Assembly (NCBI GenBank): GCA_041648575.1
Contig: JBAZOT010000002.1
Span: 34,038 to 98,037 of the forward strand
DNA length: 64,000 bases
Reading direction: 5' to 3'
DNA from: Patescibacteria group bacterium
Lineage (GTDB): Bacteria > Patescibacteriota > Patescibacteriia > Veblenbacterales > UBA10138
Each line of letters begins with the position of its first letter. The first letter of the stretch is position 1. Positions 1,087 through 46,505 of the stretch are shown here, in pieces. The notes beneath the pieces were generated by a model that ran no database searches, was not told where the DNA came from, and saw nothing but the letters and a program-made list of their open reading frames with translations. The position numbers and the translations under genes were made by a program.

Positions 1087-1146
1087 ACCAAAAACTCTTG
1101 ACCAACTAATAGTATAGTATTATTGTTGAAAATTGGCAAATTAAAA

Positions 1147-1180
1147 ACCCCGAAGTCTTATTGACCTCGGGGTTGTTCTC
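1147..1180 (+). terminator. Imperfect hairpin (ccccgaagtc/gacctcgggg) followed by a T-containing tract, downstream of ORF 601..1086
   Basis: Roughly 10-bp stem with one mismatch and a 5-nt loop. The following T-tract is weak. Confidence 0.3.
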
Positions 1181-1239
1181 ACTCTTTACGCTTACTCTTA
1201 TTTTAAGAGTAACATTTTTTTGATCGCGACTTTGTCGCT

Positions 1240-1440
1240 AGTGCGCAATTGGTAAAAGTACATACCGCTTGGTGCATTACCTGCATTCCATTCCACCAAT
1301 GTGGCTACTTCCTGCCCCAGCAGATTATACACCTTCAGAGTAGTCCAGAGACTGCCGCGCTCACTGCGTTCGCTCGCAGTGACATTGTTGTCATTGTGAG
1401 GCGTAGCGATGAAGTCACCCCTTCGGGAGATCCCGCGTAG
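1240..1440 (-). pseudogene. Orphan T9SS-type C-terminal sorting domain fragment, homologous to the 3' end of gene 2566..4257
   Basis: Minus-strand translation gives ...NDNNVTASERSERGSLWTTLKVYNLLGQEVATLVEWNAGNAPSGMYFYQLRTSDKVAIKKMLLLK*. About 85-90% nucleotide identity to 2613..2810 with internal indels. No plausible start codon or N-terminal body. The plus-strand ORF 1249..1440 is its antisense artefact. Confidence 0.55.
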
Positions 1441-1545
1441 CGGGACAATCTCTTAAGAAAAGTCTAAATATCCAACTTCATAAAATATATCCATTTTGAC
1501 TAACTTTATAAAGTTTGATAATATGATGATATATAGTAAAAATCT

Positions 1546-2472: not shown

Positions 2473-2565
2473 AGTATTGTCACCCTGAACTTGATTCAGG
2501 ATCTATTTATAATAAATAAAAGAGCCGATACTGTTCAGGTATCGGCTTTAAATTACATTTCGGTT

Positions 2566-4257
2566 TTATTTTATTAAAACCATTTTTTTTGTTTCGCAGT
2601 AGCTACCAGCAGTCAAGCGGTAAAAATACATACCACTTGGATTATTGCCAGCGTTCCATTCCACTGAGTGCTTACCCTGTTCTTTTGTTTCATTCACTAG
2701 CGTCGCCACTTCCTGCCCCAGCAGATTGTATACTTTGAGTGTTACGAGACTGCCGCGCTCACTGCGTTCGCTCGCAGTGACATTGTTGTCATTGCGAGGC
2801 ATAGCCGAAGCAATCTCATACTTAATCGTTGTCACCGGATTAAACGGATTCGGATAGTTTTGTTCCAACTGAAACGCAATTGGGATCCCGAGCACTGTCG
2901 AGGGGTCTTGCTCACCATCTGGTGGCGGCGGCGGTAATTCGTCTATATCCACGATATTAATTCGTGAGTATGAGGCTTTCGTCAGCAATGGTATGTTTAG
3001 ATACAGTGTGCCTGCCTCGTTCACTTTGATCCAATATCCATTGCCAGGCCTCAGAGTGTCTTCTGGTAAATAACTTCCATTATAGCCAAAGAATTGGCTT
3101 GTTATCATACCAGGATCTACTAATATATCCGCGCAAGCAATTGGTTCAGTCAGCGAACCAATCATATTCCAGCCTTCAGTTACTGAAATGGTGTTATTAG
3201 TAACAGGTTCACCGTTGATAATAACACTTTGGTCTTCACTGAACTTTAACCAGTAGCCAATTCCACATTTAAGCGTGTCAACATCAACATAATTACCATT
3301 GTAAGCATAGGCAGAAGATATAGCAGTGGGAAAGAGAGAATTTAAGGACATATTATCTGCCTGTCTGGCTATCGATATCATATTCCACCCTTTTTTTACG
3401 GGGTAGTATTCTGCGTTTGGCGAATATTCACCAAAATTTATTCCAGCCCAATGCAGTGTATCACCAATCGTAATAGTTGTTTCGGGAGTAGTGGCTATCC
3501 AACCACCGGCTTTAGTTTCTGGTTTTACAGTATATATTCCTCGTGGAACAGCTAGAAGGGCATAGTTACCTAAGGCATTGGTAGTAGTTGAATCTTGATG
3601 CGTACCGTTAGCATCTAAATATATCTTCCAGTTACTCATACCGTTTTCGCCACTATCAATTATGCTGTTTTGATTTGCGTCATTGAATAATACGCCAGAA
3701 ATAGTGCCTTTTTCACCACCATCATAAAATAAGATTTGTGATACTCCTTGTCCACTAGTAAAATGATCAAAATCACCAATGACAGCACCAAGAACTGACC
3801 ATGGCACATAACATATAATTAACGAAATAGAATCGAAATATGCAAGTGTACCATTCCATGGCCCCAGAAAATCTGTTGTTTGCCAACTAGTATCTCCTGC
3901 TATTCCATCAGCACTCAGAGGATAGACTGTAGTGTCCCCATGGTGTAGAGAAAACGAGAATATATAGATAACACCAGGATGACTCTGATAACCTCGTTGG
4001 TCAATATGAATAAATCCATTAAATGGTGTTAAATCTACTCTTCTTCCATATATCACACTATCTGACAATTGATCACCATTTGCTTCAATCCGTATTGCCC
4101 AGCCAGATCCTCTGCTTCCACCTTGGTGAGTATATATAGAGTCATACATAGTTGAAAGAACACGATTCCATCCATCATTATTTTGCGCATAAACAGCAAT
4201 GGTAAACACCATCGCTATTAATATCGCGATTGCAATATATAAATTTTTAAGTTTCAT
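2566..4257 (-). CDS. Secreted protein with signal peptide and T9SS-type (Por_Secre_tail-like) C-terminal sorting domain carrying an in-frame repeat-derived insertion
   Basis: N-terminal hydrophobic signal (MKLKNLYIAIAILIAMVFTIAVYA). The C-terminus reads NYPNPFNPVTTIKYEI...LVTLKVYNLLGQEVATLVNE...GMYFYRLTAG...KKMVLIK, which is typical of a T9SS C-terminal domain. A 21-aa insert (ASAMPRNDNNVTASERSERGS) is encoded by a palindromic repeat. Confidence 0.7.
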   Translation of the reverse strand: MKLKNLYIAIAILIAMVFTIAVYAQNNDGWNRVLSTMYDSIYTHQGGSRGSGWAIRIEANGDQLSDSVIYGRRVDLTPFNGFIHIDQRGYQSHPGVIYIFSFSLHHGDTTVYPLSADGIAGDTSWQTTDFLGPWNGTLAYFDSISLIICYVPWSVLGAVIGDFDHFTSGQGVSQILFYDGGEKGTISGVLFNDANQNSIIDSGENGMSNWKIYLDANGTHQDSTTTNALGNYALLAVPRGIYTVKPETKAGGWIATTPETTITIGDTLHWAGINFGEYSPNAEYYPVKKGWNMISIARQADNMSLNSLFPTAISSAYAYNGNYVDVDTLKCGIGYWLKFSEDQSVIINGEPVTNNTISVTEGWNMIGSLTEPIACADILVDPGMITSQFFGYNGSYLPEDTLRPGNGYWIKVNEAGTLYLNIPLLTKASYSRINIVDIDELPPPPPDGEQDPSTVLGIPIAFQLEQNYPNPFNPVTTIKYEIASAMPRNDNNVTASERSERGSLVTLKVYNLLGQEVATLVNETKEQGKHSVEWNAGNNPSGMYFYRLTAGSYCETKKMVLIK

Positions 4258-4589
4258 TTTTTAATTCTCCTTTCTAAAGAGAAATTTGTTTTTATTTTTT
4301 GTTTTTAAACTTGTTGGTTTAACAAAACTGATAAACTACTAAAACTAGTGTCTAGGAACTAATTATCAGCTTTGTTAATCCGGCAAATTTGTAAGGGGGT
4401 GCAGGTTTTTTAGAATTTGAAATCCATACTTCTACTATACACCATTAAACACTCCATTATGGACCAAAATGGTATTTTTGTCAATGGCAAAAACCTTAAT
4501 TAACAAAAAATGGCTAATTTTAGCCATTAACCTCTTAAAAAATACTACATGACTATCACTATAACAACTATAACATTTCTACTTTATAA

Positions 4590-7814: not shown

Positions 7815-7892
7815 AATTTACAGAATCAAGAATTATGAATTATGAATACTGAATGGTGAATAATGAATTAAGAATAGAAAATTTGGAATCAA

Positions 7893-7907
7893 GGATTTAG
7901 GATTTAG
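7893..7907. repeat. ATTTAGGATTTA-type motif (left, inverted relative to right-side copies) flanking the HepT/MNT cassette
   Basis: ggatttaggatttag here. Reverse-complement copies taaatcctaaat occur at about 8694, 8763 and 8798. A 15-bp exact direct repeat gttaattgttataat occurs at 8008 and 8823. Confidence 0.4.
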
Positions 7908-8686: not shown

Positions 8687-9082
8687 AAATATTTAAATCC
8701 TAAATTCTAATGAAAGCTTGGCTTTCACCCCGATCAATATCGGGGTAGTCCGCCATGGCGGACTAAATCCTAAATAATAAATGAAATAATTAATAATTAA
8801 ATCCTAAAATTATAAAATAAATGTTAATTGTTATAATACAGAATTAAGAATAATGAATAAAGAATTATAAATAGTGAATAATGAACATGGGATTTTTTAT
8901 TTATCATCCCGAACCCCTTCCTTTTGTCATTCCGAATTTATTTCGGAATCTATTTTGAGATGCTGAACTAAATTCAACATGACAGTATTCTTTGTTCTTA
9001 CTTAATTAAAGGGCAGGCAGGAATCCTAAACAATAGTTGAAATAATTAATAAGTTAAATTTATGAATTATTGCGCTATAAAA

Positions 9083-12932: not shown

Positions 12933-13022
12933 ATAACACCGTAACACTGTAACAATTTAACACTTTAGCAGTTTGGCACTGTAACAATATAACAGTGTGA
13001 CAATGTAACACTATAACATTAT
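12933..13022. promoter_or_regulatory. Dense array of (T)GTAACA / ATAACA heptamer repeats, with an exact 12-mer cactgtaacaat twice, in the intergenic region upstream of lemA-htpX
   Basis: At least 7 GTAACA/ATAACA/TTAACA occurrences within 90 nt, plus inverted tgtgaca. Located 45-130 nt upstream of the lemA start. Confidence 0.3.
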
Positions 13023-13065
13023 TTATAATTTTATTTTTTAACTTTTAATCTTTAATTTTTATTCT

Positions 13066-13623: not shown

Positions 13624-13693
13624 AATAAGTAGTTATGAGTAAGGAATCATGAATATTCTTTATTCGTGATTCTTAATTCTTGATTCAGTATTT

Positions 13694-15111: not shown

Positions 15112-15190
15112 TTTGTTGTACTGTTTTAATGTAATAATACCATAGTAAAAAAGGTTATCGCGAGCAAAACGCGGCGTTCTATTATAAAAA

Positions 15191-15235
15191 AGATTGCTTC
15201 GTTATTCCGCCATCGGTGGAACACCTCGCAATGAC
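15191..15235. repeat. Copy of the small palindromic repeat family (agattgcttcg ... ctcgcaatgac) in the 5' leader of the clpC-like gene
   Basis: Shares both end motifs with the 25929..26013 element in reverse orientation, with a different internal segment. Confidence 0.45.
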
Positions 15236-18672: not shown

Positions 18673-18730
18673 ATCAAAGGGATAGTGGTGGAGTAACATA
18701 TTTTTCACTACTTTTATTATTTTTTTATTA

Positions 18731-19100
18731 GAGGCAGGGGACTCGGAGTTGCGAAGGCCGTCCCCTACCCCTAACAACTCCACCCCTGCCACGCTATTTT
18801 ATAACGCCTATTCAGCCAAACAAACTTGCTATGCCAAGCGGCCGACACACGCAAGTTCTTGTTGCTTCACTACGGCGTTATTAATAAAAAACTGCCAGCA
18901 TTGCGAAAGGTCAGCTCACGGTGCGGTACCTGAGCGAACGTTAAACTGGCGCGTGTTTTGTCCTTGTAGCATAGCGCCAGTAGTGAGCGAAGGTGGCACT
19001 GTCTGACCTGAAGCACTAGCTGGCGATTCTTTCTGCCATTTCTTTTAAAGAAATGGCAAAGAGTGTTTCTTAAAAAAGGTAACAAAGTACTTTTAATAAA
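18731..19100 (+). ncRNA. Candidate structured non-coding element, copy A; homologous ends and hairpin covariation with copy B at 42203..42470
   Basis: The 5' ~75 nt and 3' ~40 nt are conserved with copy B. A 5' hairpin and an 11-bp 3' hairpin are kept by compensatory substitutions. The 85- and 109-aa ORFs inside have no protein-like features. Strand is not determined. Confidence 0.35.
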
Positions 19101-19978: not shown

Positions 19979-20184
19979 GGAGGCGTGCCCGAGTCCCCGA
20001 ACTAGAACATAGTTCAGTACGGGGCATGGGTTGAAGGGGACGGTCTTATCACCCTACGGGTGATCTCCCGAAGGGAGAAAAACATTTACAAAATTCACGG
20101 TGGGGTCGCATAGTGGTTTAGTGCACCGGTCTTGTCACCCTACAGGTGATCTCCCGAAGGGAGAAAAACATTCACAAAATTCAC
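19979..20184 (+). repeat. Array of tRNA 5'-half fragments, each fused to a conserved ~55-nt two-hairpin element; 86-bp tandem period (units at 20042 and 20128)
   Basis: Fragment X1 (19979..~20045) resembles the tRNA-Ser(TGA) 5' half through the anticodon loop, with a 30-nt hairpin inserted in the D-loop. Fragment X2 (20099..~20130) is a type-I tRNA 5' half. Each is followed by (a/g)tcaccctac(g/a)ggtgatctcccgaagggagaaaaacatt(t/c)acaaaattcacgg. No matching 3' halves are present. Confidence 0.5.
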
Positions 20185-20275
20185 GGTGGGGTGGCCGAGC
20201 GGTTGAAGGCGACAGTCTTGAAAACTGTTATACCTCAAAAAGGTATCGCGAGTTCGAATCTCGCCCCCACCGCCA
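20185..20275 (+). tRNA. tRNA-Ser (anticodon TGA), class II with long variable arm, CCA encoded
   Basis: Acceptor stem ggtgggg/ccccacc. Anticodon stem acagt/actgt with loop cttgaaa. T-arm gagttcgaatctc. 3' terminal gcca. Confidence 0.88.
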
Positions 20276-25928: not shown

Positions 25929-26013
25929 GTCATTGCGAGCGCAAGCGAAGCAATCTCTGGTTGATGCTAGTGTTTTATTAAGATTACTTCGTCGCTTGAC
26001 TCCTCGCAATGAC
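25929..26013. repeat. Small palindromic repeat element bounded by inverted 11-mers gtcattgcgag / ctcgcaatgac, with internal cgaagcaatct motif
   Basis: Terminal inverted repeat. Related copies or fragments at 1384..1440, 2745..2817 (in-frame inside the T9SS C-terminal domain) and 15191..15235. Confidence 0.5.
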
Positions 26014-33824: not shown

Positions 33825-34202
33825 ATGGAAGTTTGGGTATTTGGCAATCCAGATTTGGCCCAAGATGCTTTACCAATTAAATTATTGCCTGAATTAAAAA
33901 AACAATTTCCTAAAATAACTTTCGTGGTAAAAGATCCTAATGAGGAGTGGCTGTTACCAAAAAAACTTTATATTATAGATACAGTTCAGGACCTGAATCA
34001 GGTCAAAGTATTTACTTCTTTAGATTATTTTACCAAACAGCCAGCTATTACTATGCATGATTTTGATTTGGGAACGCAATTACAATTTTTAAAAAAACTA
34101 GAACAGTTGCCGCCCTTGGTAATTTTTGGTATTCCCATGAATATCTCGACAGCTGATGTGCTGCGTGAGCTGCTACCTAAGTTGCGTCAATATTTAGTTT
34201 AA
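33825..34202 (+). CDS. Putative hydrogenase maturation endopeptidase (HycI/HoxW-like)
   Basis: 125 aa. N-terminal (V)FGNPDLAQD… and mid-protein MHDFDLG resemble the conserved acidic and His metal-binding positions of hydrogenase maturation proteases. It converges on and overlaps the [NiFe] large-subunit gene. Confidence 0.45.
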   Translation: MEVWVFGNPDLAQDALPIKLLPELKKQFPKITFVVKDPNEEWLLPKKLYIIDTVQDLNQVKVFTSLDYFTKQPAITMHDFDLGTQLQFLKKLEQLPPLVIFGIPMNISTADVLRELLPKLRQYLV

Positions 34203-35490
34203 GAAAATGTGATGCACAGCTCATGCACGGATCATAAGCTCTAATTAATTTTTCTAATTCTTGCTGCAATTCGTCAGCTGATGGATTGGTAGGTAACAAT
34301 TCTTCCACTAATCTGGCCATGTCTTGCTCAATATTAATTTGGTTCTGGCCAGTAGGCACCACGATTTCACCTTCGGTTACTACACCTTGTTTATCTATTA
34401 TCACTTTGTGATACAAAGTACCGCGTGGCGCTTCAATCACACCAATCCCCACCCCTTCAATCTGCGTTGGAGGTACTGGTTGTTCTTGATTAAACGAGTA
34501 ATTTTCAAGAATTTCTACAGAGTGGTCAAGGCAATGCAAAATTTCAATAGCTTGAGCTAAATTATTATCAAAAATATTAGTAGAAGGAAAACGTTTTAAC
34601 ACCTCTGTTAAACTTGCTTTAGTCTTAGTGTGTAAACTGTCTTTAGCTAAATTTATACGCGCCAAGGCACCTACCATATAAGTTTCTCCAGAAAAAGTAT
34701 AACCCGAAGCTTGAGAATAAGGTATTACTTTATGCTGCAGATGATTATGAAAATCCGCTTCCTCGATACTGTCGCCTTTGTCGCTGATTATTTTTCCTTC
34801 CAAATAACTAAAAGGGTTGGCGACCAAAGCCATAAAATGCGTTTGACGGTCAAAAGAAAATTTACAGTTAGCAAATCGCTCAACTGTGCGCAAAACCGCT
34901 GATCGTGCAGCTGTTAATTTTTTTATAGCTTGCTTTATTTCTTCGGCTGTAGGAATTTTTAGCCAACCGCCAATAGCGGGATTAACGGCGTGGACACTGC
35001 GTCCGGCAATAATTATAGAAAGATAATTGCCAGCGGCTTTGATTTCAAAAGCATCATGCAATATTTGATGTTGTTCTGGATCGTTTTCATCTAATGACAG
35101 AAAAGAATCTTTACCATACATATCAGGCATGACAAATAAATACAAATGCAAAGCATGATCGCGAATATTCAAGCCGTACATGGTTAATTTTTTCATTAAT
35201 TGGGTTTGCTGCGACGGCTTAATTCCCAATGCATGCTCGCAAGCTTCAATACTGCATAACAAATGAGCATTAGAACAAGTACCACAAATGCGCGCCAATA
35301 AAGCCGGCAAAGTTTTATACGGTTTGCCGCGCATGGCCTGAGTATAAAAACGCTTGTATTCAGTAATACCAAAACGGCAATGTTCTATTTTTCCCTTGGT
35401 TATTTTAATATCCAAAACAGCCGAGCCTTCTACTTTGGTTAATTCTTTGTTTAAAGTAAGATCAACCTGGTGCATATCACTCGGTAACAA
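34177..35490 (-). CDS. [NiFe]-hydrogenase large subunit (cytosolic group 3-like)
   Basis: N-terminal Ni-binding motif RICGTCS and C-terminal DPCMSCASH (DPCxxCxxH). 437 aa. Confidence 0.85.
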   Translation of the reverse strand: MLPSDMHQVDLTLNKELTKVEGSAVLDIKITKGKIEHCRFGITEYKRFYTQAMRGKPYKTLPALLARICGTCSNAHLLCSIEACEHALGIKPSQQTQLMKKLTMYGLNIRDHALHLYLFVMPDMYGKDSFLSLDENDPEQHQILHDAFEIKAAGNYLSIIIAGRSVHAVNPAIGGWLKIPTAEEIKQAIKKLTAARSAVLRTVERFANCKFSFDRQTHFMALVANPFSYLEGKIISDKGDSIEEADFHNHLQHKVIPYSQASGYTFSGETYMVGALARINLAKDSLHTKTKASLTEVLKRFPSTNIFDNNLAQAIEILHCLDHSVEILENYSFNQEQPVPPTQIEGVGIGVIEAPRGTLYHKVIIDKQGVVTEGEIVVPTGQNQINIEQDMARLVEELLPTNPSADELQQELEKLIRAYDPCMSCASHFLKLNIDAT

Positions 35491-35992
35491 TATTAAATTC
35501 TTTAAGCATTTGATTTAAAACTTGTAAAAATTTTTTCTCGTCCATAGGACAACCGGGCACTTGGGCATCAACTGTTATAACATCAGATAATTTTTGAACA
35601 TGATCCATATAGGAAAAACGAGATAAAATATGCTCAATTTCTTCTAAACGTTCTGGGTCAAATTTATTGCGCTGAGCCGAGGGCAGACCCATTACCGCGC
35701 AGGCACCGATGGCTACAATTTTTTTTGATTTTCTTCTAATCTCTTTGATTTTTTCCACGTGTTCAGGCGAAGCCAACGCACCTTCTACAAAAGCTACATC
35801 TAATTCATCAAGTACATTTTTAGACTGCAGCACGCGAGCATAGCGAATATCCAACAATTTTTTCCATTCTTGCCAATGATCGTTTAACAACTCAGTAAAC
35901 AAAACAGTGCTATCTTCGCAACAGCTAAAAGTAAACCAGCCAATGCGTAGCTTCTTAGTTGTTATTTTGCCCGTTGATATTTTATCTGACAT
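35477..35992 (-). CDS. [NiFe]-hydrogenase small subunit (NuoB-like, proximal-cluster only)
   Basis: CC…GxCxxxG…GCPP pattern (FSCCED…IGACAVMG…VPGCPMD). Overlaps the large-subunit gene by 14 nt. Confidence 0.75.
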   Translation of the reverse strand: MSDKISTGKITTKKLRIGWFTFSCCEDSTVLFTELLNDHWQEWKKLLDIRYARVLQSKNVLDELDVAFVEGALASPEHVEKIKEIRRKSKKIVAIGACAVMGLPSAQRNKFDPERLEEIEHILSRFSYMDHVQKLSDVITVDAQVPGCPMDEKKFLQVLNQMLKEFNIVTE

Positions 35993-36863: not shown

Positions 36864-36974
36864 ACCTTAAATCTTAACATAGCTAGACTGAATTTAAAAA
36901 ATATTGTAAAGTGTAATGAGTTTACAGAATCTTGAATCAAGAATCATAAATAATGATATATTAATATTTACTTA

Positions 36975-38078
36975 TTGATTCTTAGTTCATTATTTATTAT
37001 TCATAATTTTAACAACATGTCCTTTCAAGTGGGAATTGTTGGTTTACCCAATGTGGGAAAATCAACCTTATTCAAAGCCTTAACTAGAAAATCAGTACTG
37101 ATTGAAAATTATCCTTTTGCCACTATTGACCCTAATGTGGGGGTAGTGGAAGTTCCAGATGAACGTTTGGCAAAATTAACCAATATTTCTAAATCGGAAA
37201 AAACTGTTCCAACCACTATTGAATTTGTAGATATTGCCGGCTTGGTTAAAAATGCTCACCAGGGCGAGGGTTTGGGTAATCAATTTTTAGCCAACATCCG
37301 CGAGGTGGATGCTATTGTTCAAGTAGTTAGAAATTTTAAAGACCCTAATATTATCCATGTCTCGGGAACGGTTAATCCCCAATCTGATGCTGAAGTAGTA
37401 AATGTGGAATTGGCCATGGCAGATTTATCTACTGTGGAAAAACGGCTGCAGGCCTTAAAACCCAAACTTAAAACTGGACAGGATAAAGAAATAATAAAAC
37501 AAATTGAAATCTTGAAAAAACTGCAACCACAATTGAATAGCGGCTTACCAGCGCGTCTGATTAAATTTGCTGATGACGAACAGCAATTTTTAAAAGAACT
37601 GCAACTATTAACTGCCAAACCATTGCTATATGTAATTAATACTGACGAAGCTACCCCAAACATTGACACCAATTTAAAACCAAATATTACTATTTCTGCC
37701 AAACTAGAAGCAGAACTGGCTGATCTGACTATTGCTGAAGCTAAAGTTTACCAGCAAGAATTGGGTCTAACTGAAAGTGGATTAGAAAAACTAATCCGCG
37801 CTAGCTATGAGCTGCTTCATTTAATCACTTTTTTTACTTCAGGACCAAAAGAATCCAAAGCTTGGACTGTTCGGGAAAACACAAAAGCACCCCAAGCCGC
37901 TGGAGTGATTCATACTGATTTTGAAAAAGGTTTTATTCGCGCCGAAGTTATTGCGTATACGGATTTTGTTGCTTTAGCAGGTGAAGCTGGCGCACGTGAA
38001 TCAGGAAAAATGCGTTTGGAAGGTAAGGAGTATGTAATTCAAGATGGTGATGTTTGTCACTTTAGGTTTAGTGTGTAA
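36975..38078 (+). CDS. ychF: Ribosome-binding ATPase YchF
   Basis: G1 motif GIVGLPNVGKST. C-terminal TGS domain. ~365 aa. Confidence 0.9.
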   Translation: MILSSLFIIHNFNNMSFQVGIVGLPNVGKSTLFKALTRKSVLIENYPFATIDPNVGVVEVPDERLAKLTNISKSEKTVPTTIEFVDIAGLVKNAHQGEGLGNQFLANIREVDAIVQVVRNFKDPNIIHVSGTVNPQSDAEVVNVELAMADLSTVEKRLQALKPKLKTGQDKEIIKQIEILKKLQPQLNSGLPARLIKFADDEQQFLKELQLLTAKPLLYVINTDEATPNIDTNLKPNITISAKLEAELADLTIAEAKVYQQELGLTESGLEKLIRASYELLHLITFFTSGPKESKAWTVRENTKAPQAAGVIHTDFEKGFIRAEVIAYTDFVALAGEAGARESGKMRLEGKEYVIQDGDVCHFRFSV

Positions 38079-42150: not shown

Positions 42151-42202
42151 ACGTTAAGTATAACATATTCTTTTATTATTTTTTTATAACAATCTTTTAT
42201 TA

Positions 42203-42470
42203 GGGGTAGAGGGCTCAGAGTTGCGAAGCCCGCCCTCTACCCCTAACAACCCCACACCTGGCACGCTATTTACAAAAATGCCACCATCGCAAGGATCAGT
42301 AAGCGGCACGGAAGGGTGGCGAATGACTGGGCTCGCCCGTGTTTTGGTCCTCTGCGCATGGGGCGAGCCAATGAGCCACCCGAGTACCACCTAATCCGAA
42401 GCGTCTGTGTGGCGACTTTTTGGTTACCTTTTCTTAGAAAAGGTAACAAAGTATTTCTAAAATAAATATA
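42203..42470 (+). ncRNA. Candidate structured non-coding element, copy B (homolog of 18731..19100), in the region upstream of rpsF
   Basis: 5' hairpin ggggtagagggc…gccctctacccc and 3' hairpin gttaccttttc-tta-gaaaaggtaac. The ends are conserved with copy A and the middle is divergent. The 68-aa ORF inside has no protein-like features. Confidence 0.35.
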
Positions 42471-45416: not shown

Positions 45417-46505
45417 CTATTTAACCGCGTAATTTTGGGCGGCAAAATTATACTGCGTGATGAATATTTTCTTAAACGGCACAATTGAATTTAATTCATA
45501 AAATACCAGCATCGCTTCACGATAATCATTTTCATCAACACTGCGATACGACAGAGGCGCCGAGCCATGCGCCAATAACAAAGCGTTGGCCATCAGTCGG
45601 CTGGTTCTTTTATTGCCATCCTCAAACGGCTGAATATAACCAATACCCAAAAGAGCAATCAACGCTTTAGCATAGGGCGTTGACATTTGTGATACAGCCG
45701 CGCCAAGATCATTAATTGCTTCAGTAATTTGATAAATATTATCTAACGGTCGGTAAACTGATCCAACTACGCCGACTGGTTTTTCACGCAAACCCAAATC
45801 CACGCTTAAATCTTTAACCAAAATAGCATGCAGTTCTTCTAAATTTGGCTGCGTAATTGTTTTAAATTGCGAAGTATATTCGCGAACAAAATTAAAAGCA
45901 TCTTTATGGTTCAAAATCATTTGTGTCTCTTGTTGTGTCTTACCGAGCGCTGCTTTGTTCTCTAGAATTAACTTTTCCGTATCCAAAAGAGTATAGGTAT
46001 TGCCCTCAATTTTTGATGACTTCCAAGACAGCTCAATAATAAGCCGCTCTAATTCTTTTCTTTGAATAGTCGTTGGTAAATCTCTTGTTCTTTTTTTATA
46101 TTCAGAGGTTGCGCTATCCAAAATTTTCAACTCATCGGTTGTAAAAATATCTGATTTTAAACCAGGCAGTAAATCAAAATTATACCGGTTTAGACCGTAA
46201 CGTTTATCTGGTTCAAGGGAACAATATTTATGGGCATCAACTTCGGCAAATATTCTGCCCAGCGAGCTTATATCATAGCTGGTGGATCGCCCAGAACCTG
46301 CCGCAACCAAAACACCAACACTCGCCATTTCGGACAAAGCTCTTTTTATTGTAACCAAAGAAATATCCTCCCCTTGTTTAACTATCTCGGCATACACGGC
46401 CGATGACTGCATTTTTCCTTTCTCAAGGATAATGGCAGTTATTTTTTGTTGTTTTGTAATTAATTTAATCATTTTCGTATCATTTATATACTTTAATCGT
46501 ATCAT
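45417..46505 (-). CDS. Fic-fold protein with N-terminal winged-helix domain and degenerate active-site motif (QPFEDGNKRTSR; catalytic His replaced by Gln)
   Basis: The Fic core pattern xPFxDGNxR is present with Gln at the His position and Lys in place of the second Gly. Inhibitory-type motif SSKIEGN upstream. N-terminal wHTH (…SLVTIKRALSEM…). Confidence 0.65.
   Translation of the reverse strand: MIRLKYINDTKMIKLITKQQKITAIILEKGKMQSSAVYAEIVKQGEDISLVTIKRALSEMASVGVLVAAGSGRSTSYDISSLGRIFAEVDAHKYCSLEPDKRYGLNRYNFDLLPGLKSDIFTTDELKILDSATSEYKKRTRDLPTTIQRKELERLIIELSWKSSKIEGNTYTLLDTEKLILENKAALGKTQQETQMILNHKDAFNFVREYTSQFKTITQPNLEELHAILVKDLSVDLGLREKPVGVVGSVYRPLDNIYQITEAINDLGAAVSQMSTPYAKALIALLGIGYIQPFEDGNKRTSRLMANALLLAHGSAPLSYRSVDENDYREAMLVFYELNSIVPFKKIFITQYNFAAQNYAVK

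Follow-up and report, generated by a model that had tools for sequence, protein, structure and literature searches.

How does a protein of an ultra-small Patescibacteria group bacterium come to end in a sorting domain of the type IX secretion system (T9SS), and why is part of that domain encoded by a dispersed palindromic repeat? Both questions are raised by a gene for a protein of 563 amino acids (aa), which lies on a stretch of 64,000 nucleotides (nt; positions 34,038 to 98,037 of contig JBAZOT010000002.1, assembly GCA_041648575.1). This whole stretch is called the window here and is part of the 88-kb ENA contig k141_1076818. The T9SS belongs to diderm cells with an outer membrane, and its hallmarks are SprA/Sov, PorV, PorU, GldK/L/M/N and many different cargo proteins that carry the C-terminal domain (CTD). 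Patescibacteria, to our knowledge, have no outer membrane. An earlier reading of the window from its letters alone (the original prediction) had drawn attention to both the domain and the repeat. The analysis described here identifies a type A T9SS CTD, in which the loop between strand 1 and strand 2 has been replaced in-frame by 72 nt that consist of two inverted units of the repetitive extragenic palindromic (REP) type.

From its sequence, the open reading frame (ORF) is predicted to encode a multi-domain protein that a Patescibacteria (candidate phyla radiation) bacterium exports via Sec and either secretes or displays on its surface. Its domains follow one another as a jelly-roll like those of carbohydrate-binding modules (CBM), an SdrD_B immunoglobulin-like (Ig) domain, a double beta module, a Pro-rich linker and the CTD. 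The elements are as follows, with confidence in the AlphaFold2 model given as the predicted local distance difference test (pLDDT):

2566-4257, minus strand: intact ORF of 563 aa for a secreted multi-domain protein with a T9SS-type CTD (stop codon 2566-2568)
4183-4257, minus strand: Sec-type signal peptide, aa 1-25, MKLKNLYIAIAILIAMVFTIAVYA followed by Q, judged from sequence, with a putative cleavage site
3718-4170, minus strand: N-terminal beta jelly-roll, aa ~30-180, CBM-like and specific to the Patescibacteria family (AlphaFold2 and Foldseek)
3484-3699, minus strand: SdrD_B / CarboxypepD_reg-like Ig domain, aa 187-258 (PF17210, 37.8 bits, cut-off 29.7)
2968-3402, minus strand: double beta module (GWNM...GYW.K twice), aa 286-430 (pLDDT >90)
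2863-2967, minus strand: Pro-rich linker, aa 431-465, of low model confidence
2569-2862, minus strand: type A T9SS C-terminal sorting domain, aa 466-563 of 563 (profiles and AlphaFold2)

The AlphaFold2 model was built from 46 aligned sequences and has a mean pLDDT of 84.4. It begins with a helix at aa 2-20 and a low-confidence segment at aa 20-26, and cleavage is likely between VYA and Q. The N-terminal beta domain was matched by Foldseek to CBM4, CBM11, CBM16 and CBM27 structures of the PDB (TMt 0.45-0.52).

The C-terminus was recognised by two curated hidden Markov models (HMMs), PF18962 (Por_Secre_tail; E=3.2e-10, 40.6 bits, cut-off 27; aa 468-560 on profile positions 2-74) and TIGR04183 of NCBIfam (E=6e-11, 42.2 bits, cut-off 23), and by a custom CTD HMM (E=3e-39). 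The search with the two curated profiles thus bears out the original prediction, which had called this C-terminus a T9SS-type CTD. The PF18962 match spends 93 residues on 73 profile positions, so that about 20 residues are surplus in the domain. In the model, six strands (475-482, 503-510, 516-525, 528-535, 542-550 and 553-561) have pLDDT values of 86-94, and the alignment of homologues has invariant columns at Y468, P469, N470, P471, F472, N473, P474, G514, G528 and Y544. The solved CTD structure 8glj_D gave a weak sequence match (E=0.21). Membership of the CTD family is founded on the HMMs, since Foldseek with the whole multi-domain model returned no CTD structures among its top matches. The domain is like other type A CTDs (TIGR04183 / PF18962) in its scores, its place at the extreme C-terminus of a protein with an N-terminal Sec signal, its motifs (NYPNPFNP, G-M-Y-F-Y-R-L and terminal KKMVLIK), its modelled beta-sandwich and the 280 aa ahead of it, which are 40-50% identical to Ignavibacteria cargo. 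It differs from them in standing in a Patescibacteria genome, in one gene family only and with no T9SS gene seen on the 88-kb contig, and in a strand 1-strand 2 loop that is 17 residues longer than the canonical one.

The surplus lies in that loop. The insert is composed of the following elements:

2746-2817, no strand assigned: in-frame repeat dimer of 72 nt or 24 codons (E481-L504), in place of a loop of ~7 residues
2788-2817, plus strand: repeat unit A, (T)GTCATTGCGAGGCATAGCCGAAGCAATCTC
2782-2787: spacer AACAAT, 6 nt, between units A and B
2746-2781, minus strand: repeat unit B, (T)GTCACTGCGAGCGAACGCAGTGAGCGCGGCAGTCTC, which includes a 24-nt palindrome

The 24-nt palindrome CTCACTGCGTTCGCTCGCAGTGAC (2758-2781) has a second exact copy at 1360-1383, and none was expected from 100 shuffles. 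The sequence GTCATTGCGAGG at 2788-2799 has relatives at 1390, 15224, 25929 and 26002, which makes five sites against 0.15 expected. Units A and B have their ends in common (GTCAYTGCGAG...GCARTCTC) and face each other, and therefore the whole insert folds as one hairpin, with an RNA minimum free energy of -36.5 kcal/mol (z=-2.98) that none of 200 shuffled sequences reached. Ten perfect GC-rich hairpins with a stem of at least 8 bp occur in the window; nine of them are intergenic and the insert hairpin is the sole intragenic one. In the AlphaFold2 model the CTD sandwich appears to be kept, and the insert would sit in a low-confidence loop between the first two CTD strands (residues 483-502, pLDDT 63-64). 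The original prediction was right that a repeat lies in-frame inside a folded sorting domain, and the model places it between two strands; its figure of 21 repeat-encoded residues was too small.

The comparison with homologues points in the same direction. NYPNPF and strand 2 are 23 residues apart in 92 of 109 homologues and 40 in the window protein, the longest distance of all. The orthologues P0004, P0008, P0009 and P0012 have no insert at this site, and the Ignavibacteria-type homologues are also without it. That the loop is encoded by a dispersed palindromic family, as had first been suggested, is supported. Other repeat modules stand at the same site in P0007 (VIASEAKQSH), P0010 (EIASSSSLTGLLAMT) and P0011 (EIASTTPGGLAMT). 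In P0005 the site is occupied by a repeat of 7-nt period, which the window has between its genes. Longer loops are present in 8 of the 12 family members and in 9 of 97 other homologues (Fisher P=2e-5). A second protein search also found repeat-derived peptides in the same loop of CTDs from other organisms, such as VIASETKQSQ in P0138 and ...GGRNDN in P0131. When regions were compared among homologues, the insert had no amino-acid conservation. As a separate observation, AT-rich 7-nt-periodic repeats of the form (GAATNAT)n are present in the window at 7817-7905, 8835-8909, 13652-13692 and 36893-37008, where they flank an NTP_transf_2/HepT toxin-antitoxin pair and occur elsewhere; a repeat of this type encodes NHESRIMNYE in the CTD loop of P0005.

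The protein is 100% identical to the NCBI entry 'T9SS type A sorting domain-containing protein [Patescibacteria group bacterium]', and RpoB of the window is likewise 100% identical to a protein of a Patescibacteria metagenome-assembled genome at NCBI. The named relatives of RpoB (74-93% identity) are all Patescibacteria, including Kerfeldbacteria, Veblenbacteria, Komeilibacteria and Parcubacteria, and on these identities the window is assigned to Patescibacteria. The longest contig on record is the same for the 563-aa protein and RpoB (103,748 bp). Two further loci were compared with the window's contig (L001), namely L002 (GCA_043806155.1) and L003 (a 469-kb contig of GCA_964348825.1). In both, the orthologues (38-43% identity) adjoin a PaaX_M-domain gene and a PilM...MshEN/T2SSE type IV pilus cluster, so that the CTD gene and both of these neighbours are syntenic in L001, L002 and L003. 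Because of this synteny in three assemblies and the unremarkable GC content (0.40 in the gene against a window mean of ~0.38), a chimeric join appears very unlikely from the sequences. The chimeric contig, which the original prediction had kept as an option, is effectively excluded. The gene appears to be a stable and vertically kept member of a Patescibacteria clade. In L003, a four-helix-bundle gene (23S_rRNA_IVP/bAvd; 378-737) is situated between two pilus ATPase genes of the syntenic cluster.

Where the C-terminal part came from is suggested by its relatives. Twelve homologues match the protein from end to end (36-47% identity), and those with a name or a readable context are Patescibacteria. 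More than 2,500 further homologues align over the C-terminal half to two-thirds only (40-50% identity). Where these have a name, it is that of a T9SS protein of Ignavibacteriae, Bacteroidota or Calditrichaceae, and their N-terminal domains are many and varied. Residues 186-563 are 40-57% identical to proteins named for Ignavibacteriae or Bacteroidota, and residues 1-185 only 13-21%. The double beta module, common to Ignavibacteria/Bacteroidota T9SS cargo, has the same 40-57% identity to hits P0002-P0074. Identity of the N-terminus within the Patescibacteria family is 25-40%; in the part that starts with SdrD_B, it is similar in this family and in the other homologues. The part from SdrD_B onward was therefore probably acquired horizontally from T9SS cargo of the Ignavibacteriota/Bacteroidota type. 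Across the Patescibacteria family, conservation is highest in the CTD, at 69-94% identity in strand 1 and 51-67% in the rest.

No gene for PorU, PorV, SprA, GldK-N or outer-membrane biogenesis was found among the precomputed Pfam hits for all genes of the 88-kb contig, in agreement with the remark that the window contains no T9SS component. A search of six-frame translations with the custom HMM over ~150 kb of Patescibacteria loci found no CTD proteins beyond this gene family and one relic.

The relic, a truncated second CTD, carries the same repeat dimer as the 563-aa gene:

1197-1452, minus strand: relic of a paralogous CTD, truncated, without start codon or N-terminal part, orthologue of P0007 of L002
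1348-1383: relic unit B', within the CTD relic
1390-1452: relic composite unit A' with a nested additional hairpin, within the CTD relic
1146-1174, minus strand: terminator hairpin after the relic, also found after P0007

Its minus-strand translation (...NDNNVTASERSERGSLWTTLKVYNLLGQEVATLVEWNAGNAPSGMYFYQLRTSDKVAIKKMLLLK and a stop) is the 3' end of a second CTD and matches the custom CTD HMM (E=1.4e-14). Since the C-terminus and the terminator correspond to those of P0007, the window genome has lost most of a second paralogue. The break in the relic falls exactly where a repeat unit ends. Between the gene and the relic, the insert core is identical at 58 of 60 nt and the flanking CTD at 101 of 145 (binomial P=1.4e-7). 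The insert is thus more alike than its surroundings, and this suggests that in this lineage the copies were either homogenised by gene conversion or inserted in parallel not long ago. Recombination may also be seen in the comparison with the L002 orthologue, to which the window gene is ~33% identical at third codon positions (saturated). The exceptions are the terminator, which is identical, and a 90-nt tract over aa 444-473 (linker and NYPNPF; window 2837-2926, L002 6745-6830) with 92% DNA identity. This tract may be a short recombination or conversion tract adjoining the insertion hot spot.

Several observations can be added on this part of the genome. A Fic-domain gene (1546-2472) occupies the very place from which the second CTD paralogue was deleted. 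Directly after its stop codon lies a hairpin GTCACCCTGAACTTGATTCAGGATC (2473-2500) with a GTCAYY head like that of the present repeat family, of which it may be another subtype. In P0007, whose counterpart was lost in the window genome, a ~120-nt cluster of repeat units (L002 10700-10818) adds ~40 residues to the Ig domain, SdrD_B, and more units are present in the linker and the CTD loop. An ORF of 161 aa (601-1086) without a Pfam match lies within 588-1115, which is 89% identical over 530 nt to L002 2612-3139, while neighbouring orthologous genes are saturated; its position differs between the window genome and L002, and it is either recently exchanged or unusually constrained.

The repeat family has the consensus YGTC-AYTGCGAG...GCARTCTC and is also termed the YGTCAYTGCGAG family. 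Its intergenic members in the window are:

15190-15235, minus strand: single intergenic repeat unit, upstream of a ClpB-like gene
25929-26013, no strand assigned: intergenic tail-to-tail dimer of one unit on the plus strand (25929-25957) and one on the minus strand (25981-26013)

The original prediction had spoken of intergenic copies, and these two loci are such copies; the copy at 1360, taken for another, lies inside the truncated second CTD. The tag of the units in the window is TGTC in four and CGTC in one. The exact pattern GTCATTGCGAG-N4-20-GAAGCAATCTC was scanned in one genome per species, and at least 120 stretches from many phyla were found, with no CTD near those listed. The hosts among the matches listed include Chloroflexota, Bacteroidota isolates (Chryseobacterium, Flavobacterium and Mucilaginibacter), Proteobacteria, Desulfobacterota, Patescibacteria, Ignavibacteriaceae, Sporomusa, Omnitrophota, Atribacterota and Elusimicrobiota. 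Among these matches, the core between the fixed ends is variable and often a hairpin itself, T or C stands ahead of GTCA in 139 of 158 units (49% expected), and 66 of the 158 have an inverted partner nearby with tail-to-tail dimers predominating. The tag-to-tag heterodimer (...CTCGCAATGAC-N2-12-GTCACTGCGAG...) was found in at least 120 metagenome stretches. Of the units or dimers, ~10% are within long open frames. A preference of the dimer for CTDs in general was considered and ruled out, because a CTD was nearby in only one of the 120 loci listed, with the dimer outside the gene; the dimer does not target CTDs as such. An all-against-all BLAST of the 618 ORFs neighbouring the 158 listed units revealed no protein family that constantly adjoins the repeat; four-helix-bundle/23S intervening-sequence proteins, GIY-YIG proteins and transposases were each considered, and none was a consistent neighbour. 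Rfam, at gathering and permissive thresholds, returned only tRNAs and sub-threshold noise and no family for the repeats, and full-text literature searches gave nothing relevant for the repeat DNA or its peptides.

Inside genes of the Patescibacteria loci, the distribution of the family is biased. In ~150 kb of Patescibacteria DNA, all units in long ORFs belong to the gene family of the 563-aa protein (two in the window gene, five in P0007, two in P0011 and one degenerate unit in P0006), and four units are intergenic. The ~140 other genes of these loci, very large surface proteins included, have none. Repeat-peptide motifs number 21 in the 6,726 aa of the 12 family proteins and 14 in 77,923 aa of Ignavibacteria-type homologues. 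A k-mer comparison of the loci, for which k=14 was used as k=12 was too noisy in AT-rich DNA, found that repeat modules situated between genes in the window recur inside genes in L002. Two hot spots lie on either side of the best-conserved stretch of DNA, one in the Pro-rich linker and the other in the strand 1-strand 2 loop. Part of this intragenic bias can be accounted for by tolerance of surface loops; the remainder may be due to recombination between CTD cassettes with the help of the repeats.

By description, the repeat resembles the CGTC-tagged class of REPs and Rickettsia palindromic elements (RPEs). That class occurs in several phyla and includes Rickettsia RPE-4/-6 and Neisseria dRS3; its four families have stems of 8-9 bp that start with A-T, T-A, loops of 4-5 nt and a short tail, the tag is often TGTC, dimers form, in-frame copies in ORFs are known with dimers encoding 20-30 aa, and a transposase dedicated to them is not known (Di Nocera et al., 2013; PMC3733652). 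The unpaired CGTC/TGTC tag, the AT start of the stem, the inverted dimers and the in-frame copies (24 codons here) are alike. The outer stem here is 5 bp (ATTGC/GCAAT or ACTGC/GCAGT) around a variable core of 4-20 nt, unit B has a stem of 7-8 bp and a loop of 6 nt, outside the described 4-5, the tail is CTC and not CCA, and Patescibacteria are absent from the hosts listed in PMC3733652. Stem and loop do not fit, and therefore these repeats may be said to work like the CGTC class and are placed in none of its four families. The second system for comparison is that of the REPINs of Pseudomonas and E. coli, which are mobilised by REP-associated tyrosine transposases (RAYTs). The two-unit REPIN hairpin is the presumed replicating unit, and the gene of the RAYT, a Y1 transposase, is flanked by REPs in the same genome. 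Two inverted REP units in one long hairpin are common to REPINs and the insert; here, the GTAG tag is missing and no mobility was observed.

Taken as a whole, these results are best explained by a captured CTD cassette with a structural or adhesive role and a neutral or selfish in-frame REP dimer, which we regard as fairly probable. A C-terminal cargo cassette would have been captured from a donor of the Ignavibacteriota/Bacteroidota type and joined to an N-terminal domain peculiar to this lineage. Vertical inheritance in a Patescibacteria clade would have followed, with the gene beside the PaaX-like gene and the type IV pilus cluster, and the protein would be exported by Sec and displayed or released. 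In a cell that is probably without an outer membrane, the CTD could not be used as a T9SS export signal, and it would persist as a conserved C-terminal beta-sandwich, most likely structural or adhesive. The REP dimer, as selfish or neutral DNA, would have replaced a permissive loop in-frame and would survive because the frame is kept, there is no stop codon and the surface loop is tolerated by the sandwich. It may have reached both CTD paralogues via gene conversion or repeated insertion. Repeat-rich gene copies would be heading for loss, as a heavy repeat load accompanies the decay of one paralogue (relic 1197-1452).

Several points weigh against this explanation. The direction of horizontal transfer is read from how common the module is among named Ignavibacteria/Bacteroidota proteins and not from a phylogeny, and the apparent absence of the T9SS refers to 88 kb of the genome. 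The CTD is the best-conserved region, and this speaks against its being a relic without function. Mobility of the repeat is suggested by its pattern of presence and absence, and the precomputed Pfam hits on the 88-kb contig include no RAYT/Y1 transposase (PF01797-type) or IS200/IS605 element. The codon-level comparison found no target-site duplication around the insert, the native loop being replaced and not interrupted. Furthermore, the intragenic copies in ~150 kb of Patescibacteria DNA are confined to one gene family, a bias for which simple tolerance of loops does not account.

In a rival reading, the conserved CTD would be a working address tag. It would serve either a sorting or anchoring pathway that depends on the CTD and has so far escaped recognition, or docking on host T9SS components such as PorV when the cell lives as an epibiont attached to an Ignavibacteria/Bacteroidota host by the neighbouring type IV pili. 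The steep contrast with the N-terminus, the position beside the pilus cluster in three genomes and the likeness of the C-terminal two-thirds to Ignavibacteria cargo all speak for such a tag. No candidate machinery was found on the 88-kb contig and no host was identified, while the restriction of the CTD to one gene family in the loci examined is unlike genuine T9SS cargo sets, and colonisation by repeats and the loss of one paralogue suggest weak constraint; both variants taken together are unlikely. A low probability is also given to the wider proposal that the CTD is such a tag and that its gene family is the preferred intragenic landing site of a pan-bacterial REP, whose turnover remodels an exposed loop. 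Alternatively, the organism or contig could truly be diderm and possess a T9SS, with the gene as ordinary cargo and the contig either chimeric or mis-binned or the T9SS genes elsewhere. The CTD does score well and is conserved, and only 88 kb of the genome were inspected. However, the gene and RpoB are together on k141_1076818 (88 kb) and are both recorded on a 103.7-kb NCBI/JGI contig, Patescibacteria-type neighbours are syntenic in three assemblies that include a 469-kb contig, the loci examined contain no other CTD protein, T9SS or outer-membrane gene, and Patescibacteria are generally held to have no outer membrane. We consider this very improbable.

The remaining alternatives concern the insert. 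It could be adaptive and not selfish, if its mRNA hairpin tuned translation or stability, or if turnover of the peptide diversified an exposed loop in contact with a host. The strong hairpin, the differing repeat modules that recur in the same loop (8/12 against 9/97) and the confinement of intragenic copies to this gene family are in its favour. The peptides, though, vary with reading frame and orientation and have no common motif, the same units stand in intergenic DNA without a coding role, and the most heavily decorated paralogue was lost in the window genome, so that adaptation is an unlikely explanation. That the long loop is native, with no insertion at all and with the intergenic look-alikes as chance matches or fragments copied from the gene, would fit the missing target-site duplication and the replaced rather than interrupted loop. 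It is hardly compatible with unit ends in at least 120 genome stretches of many phyla with no CTD nearby, with the dimer in at least 120 metagenome stretches of which one among the matches listed is near a CTD, with the 92 of 109 homologues that have no longer loop, or with the missing amino-acid conservation of the insert, and it is extremely unlikely.

Each element described here is of a known kind, namely a type A T9SS CTD and an in-frame insertion like those of REPs and RPEs, and the protein is already so annotated at NCBI. Their combination, a CTD family conserved in Patescibacteria that is the preferred intragenic site of a REP spanning many phyla, appears undiscussed in the searchable literature; full-text searches for T9SS or Por_Secre_tail together with Patescibacteria or the candidate phyla radiation gave nothing relevant. 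A T9SS sorting domain that is under purifying selection and syntenic with a pilus locus, in a lineage thought to lack both outer membrane and T9SS, bears on what such a domain does outside the canonical system. The likeness of the module to Ignavibacteria proteins gives, in addition, a hint at the hosts of these epibionts that can be tested. The case extends the 'selfish DNA in proteins' of the in-frame REP/RPE type to Patescibacteria, and one REP family with fixed ends is seen to span a very wide range of phyla. Repeat peptides such as EIAS..PRND, VIASEAKQS and LAMT inflate and distort metagenome protein families and are best recognised as translations of REPs.

The expression signals of the 563-aa gene were also located:

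2523-2547, minus strand: intrinsic terminator of the gene, with 33 nt identical to the terminator after the L002 orthologue P0005
4266-4270: ribosome-binding site GGAGA, upstream of the gene, read from sequence
4456-4484, minus strand: promoter-like site, a consensus match at 11 of 12 positions

Elsewhere on this Patescibacteria contig, genes for the large and small subunits of a NiFe-hydrogenase are found at 34177-35992, and a second Fic-domain gene is found at 45417-46505 in addition to the one at 1546-2472. Further repeats of other kinds are present in the window. An 86-nt tandem duplication (20041-20212) lies upstream of tRNA-Ser(TGA); the end of its first copy looks like a truncated 5' part of a tRNA, and within it lies the hairpin TCACCCTACGGGTGATCTCCCGAAGGGA, a second copy of which is nested in the CTD relic (1419-1448). 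Another dispersed family is represented by an 88-nt intergenic repeat with the GC-rich core AGGGGACTCGGAGTTGCGAAGGCCGTCCCCTACCCC, whose copies at 18712-18799 and 42184-42271 are 82% identical. Between a 197-aa ORF and the LemA gene, an 8-nt-periodic array (CACTGTAACA-like) extends over 12937-13024.

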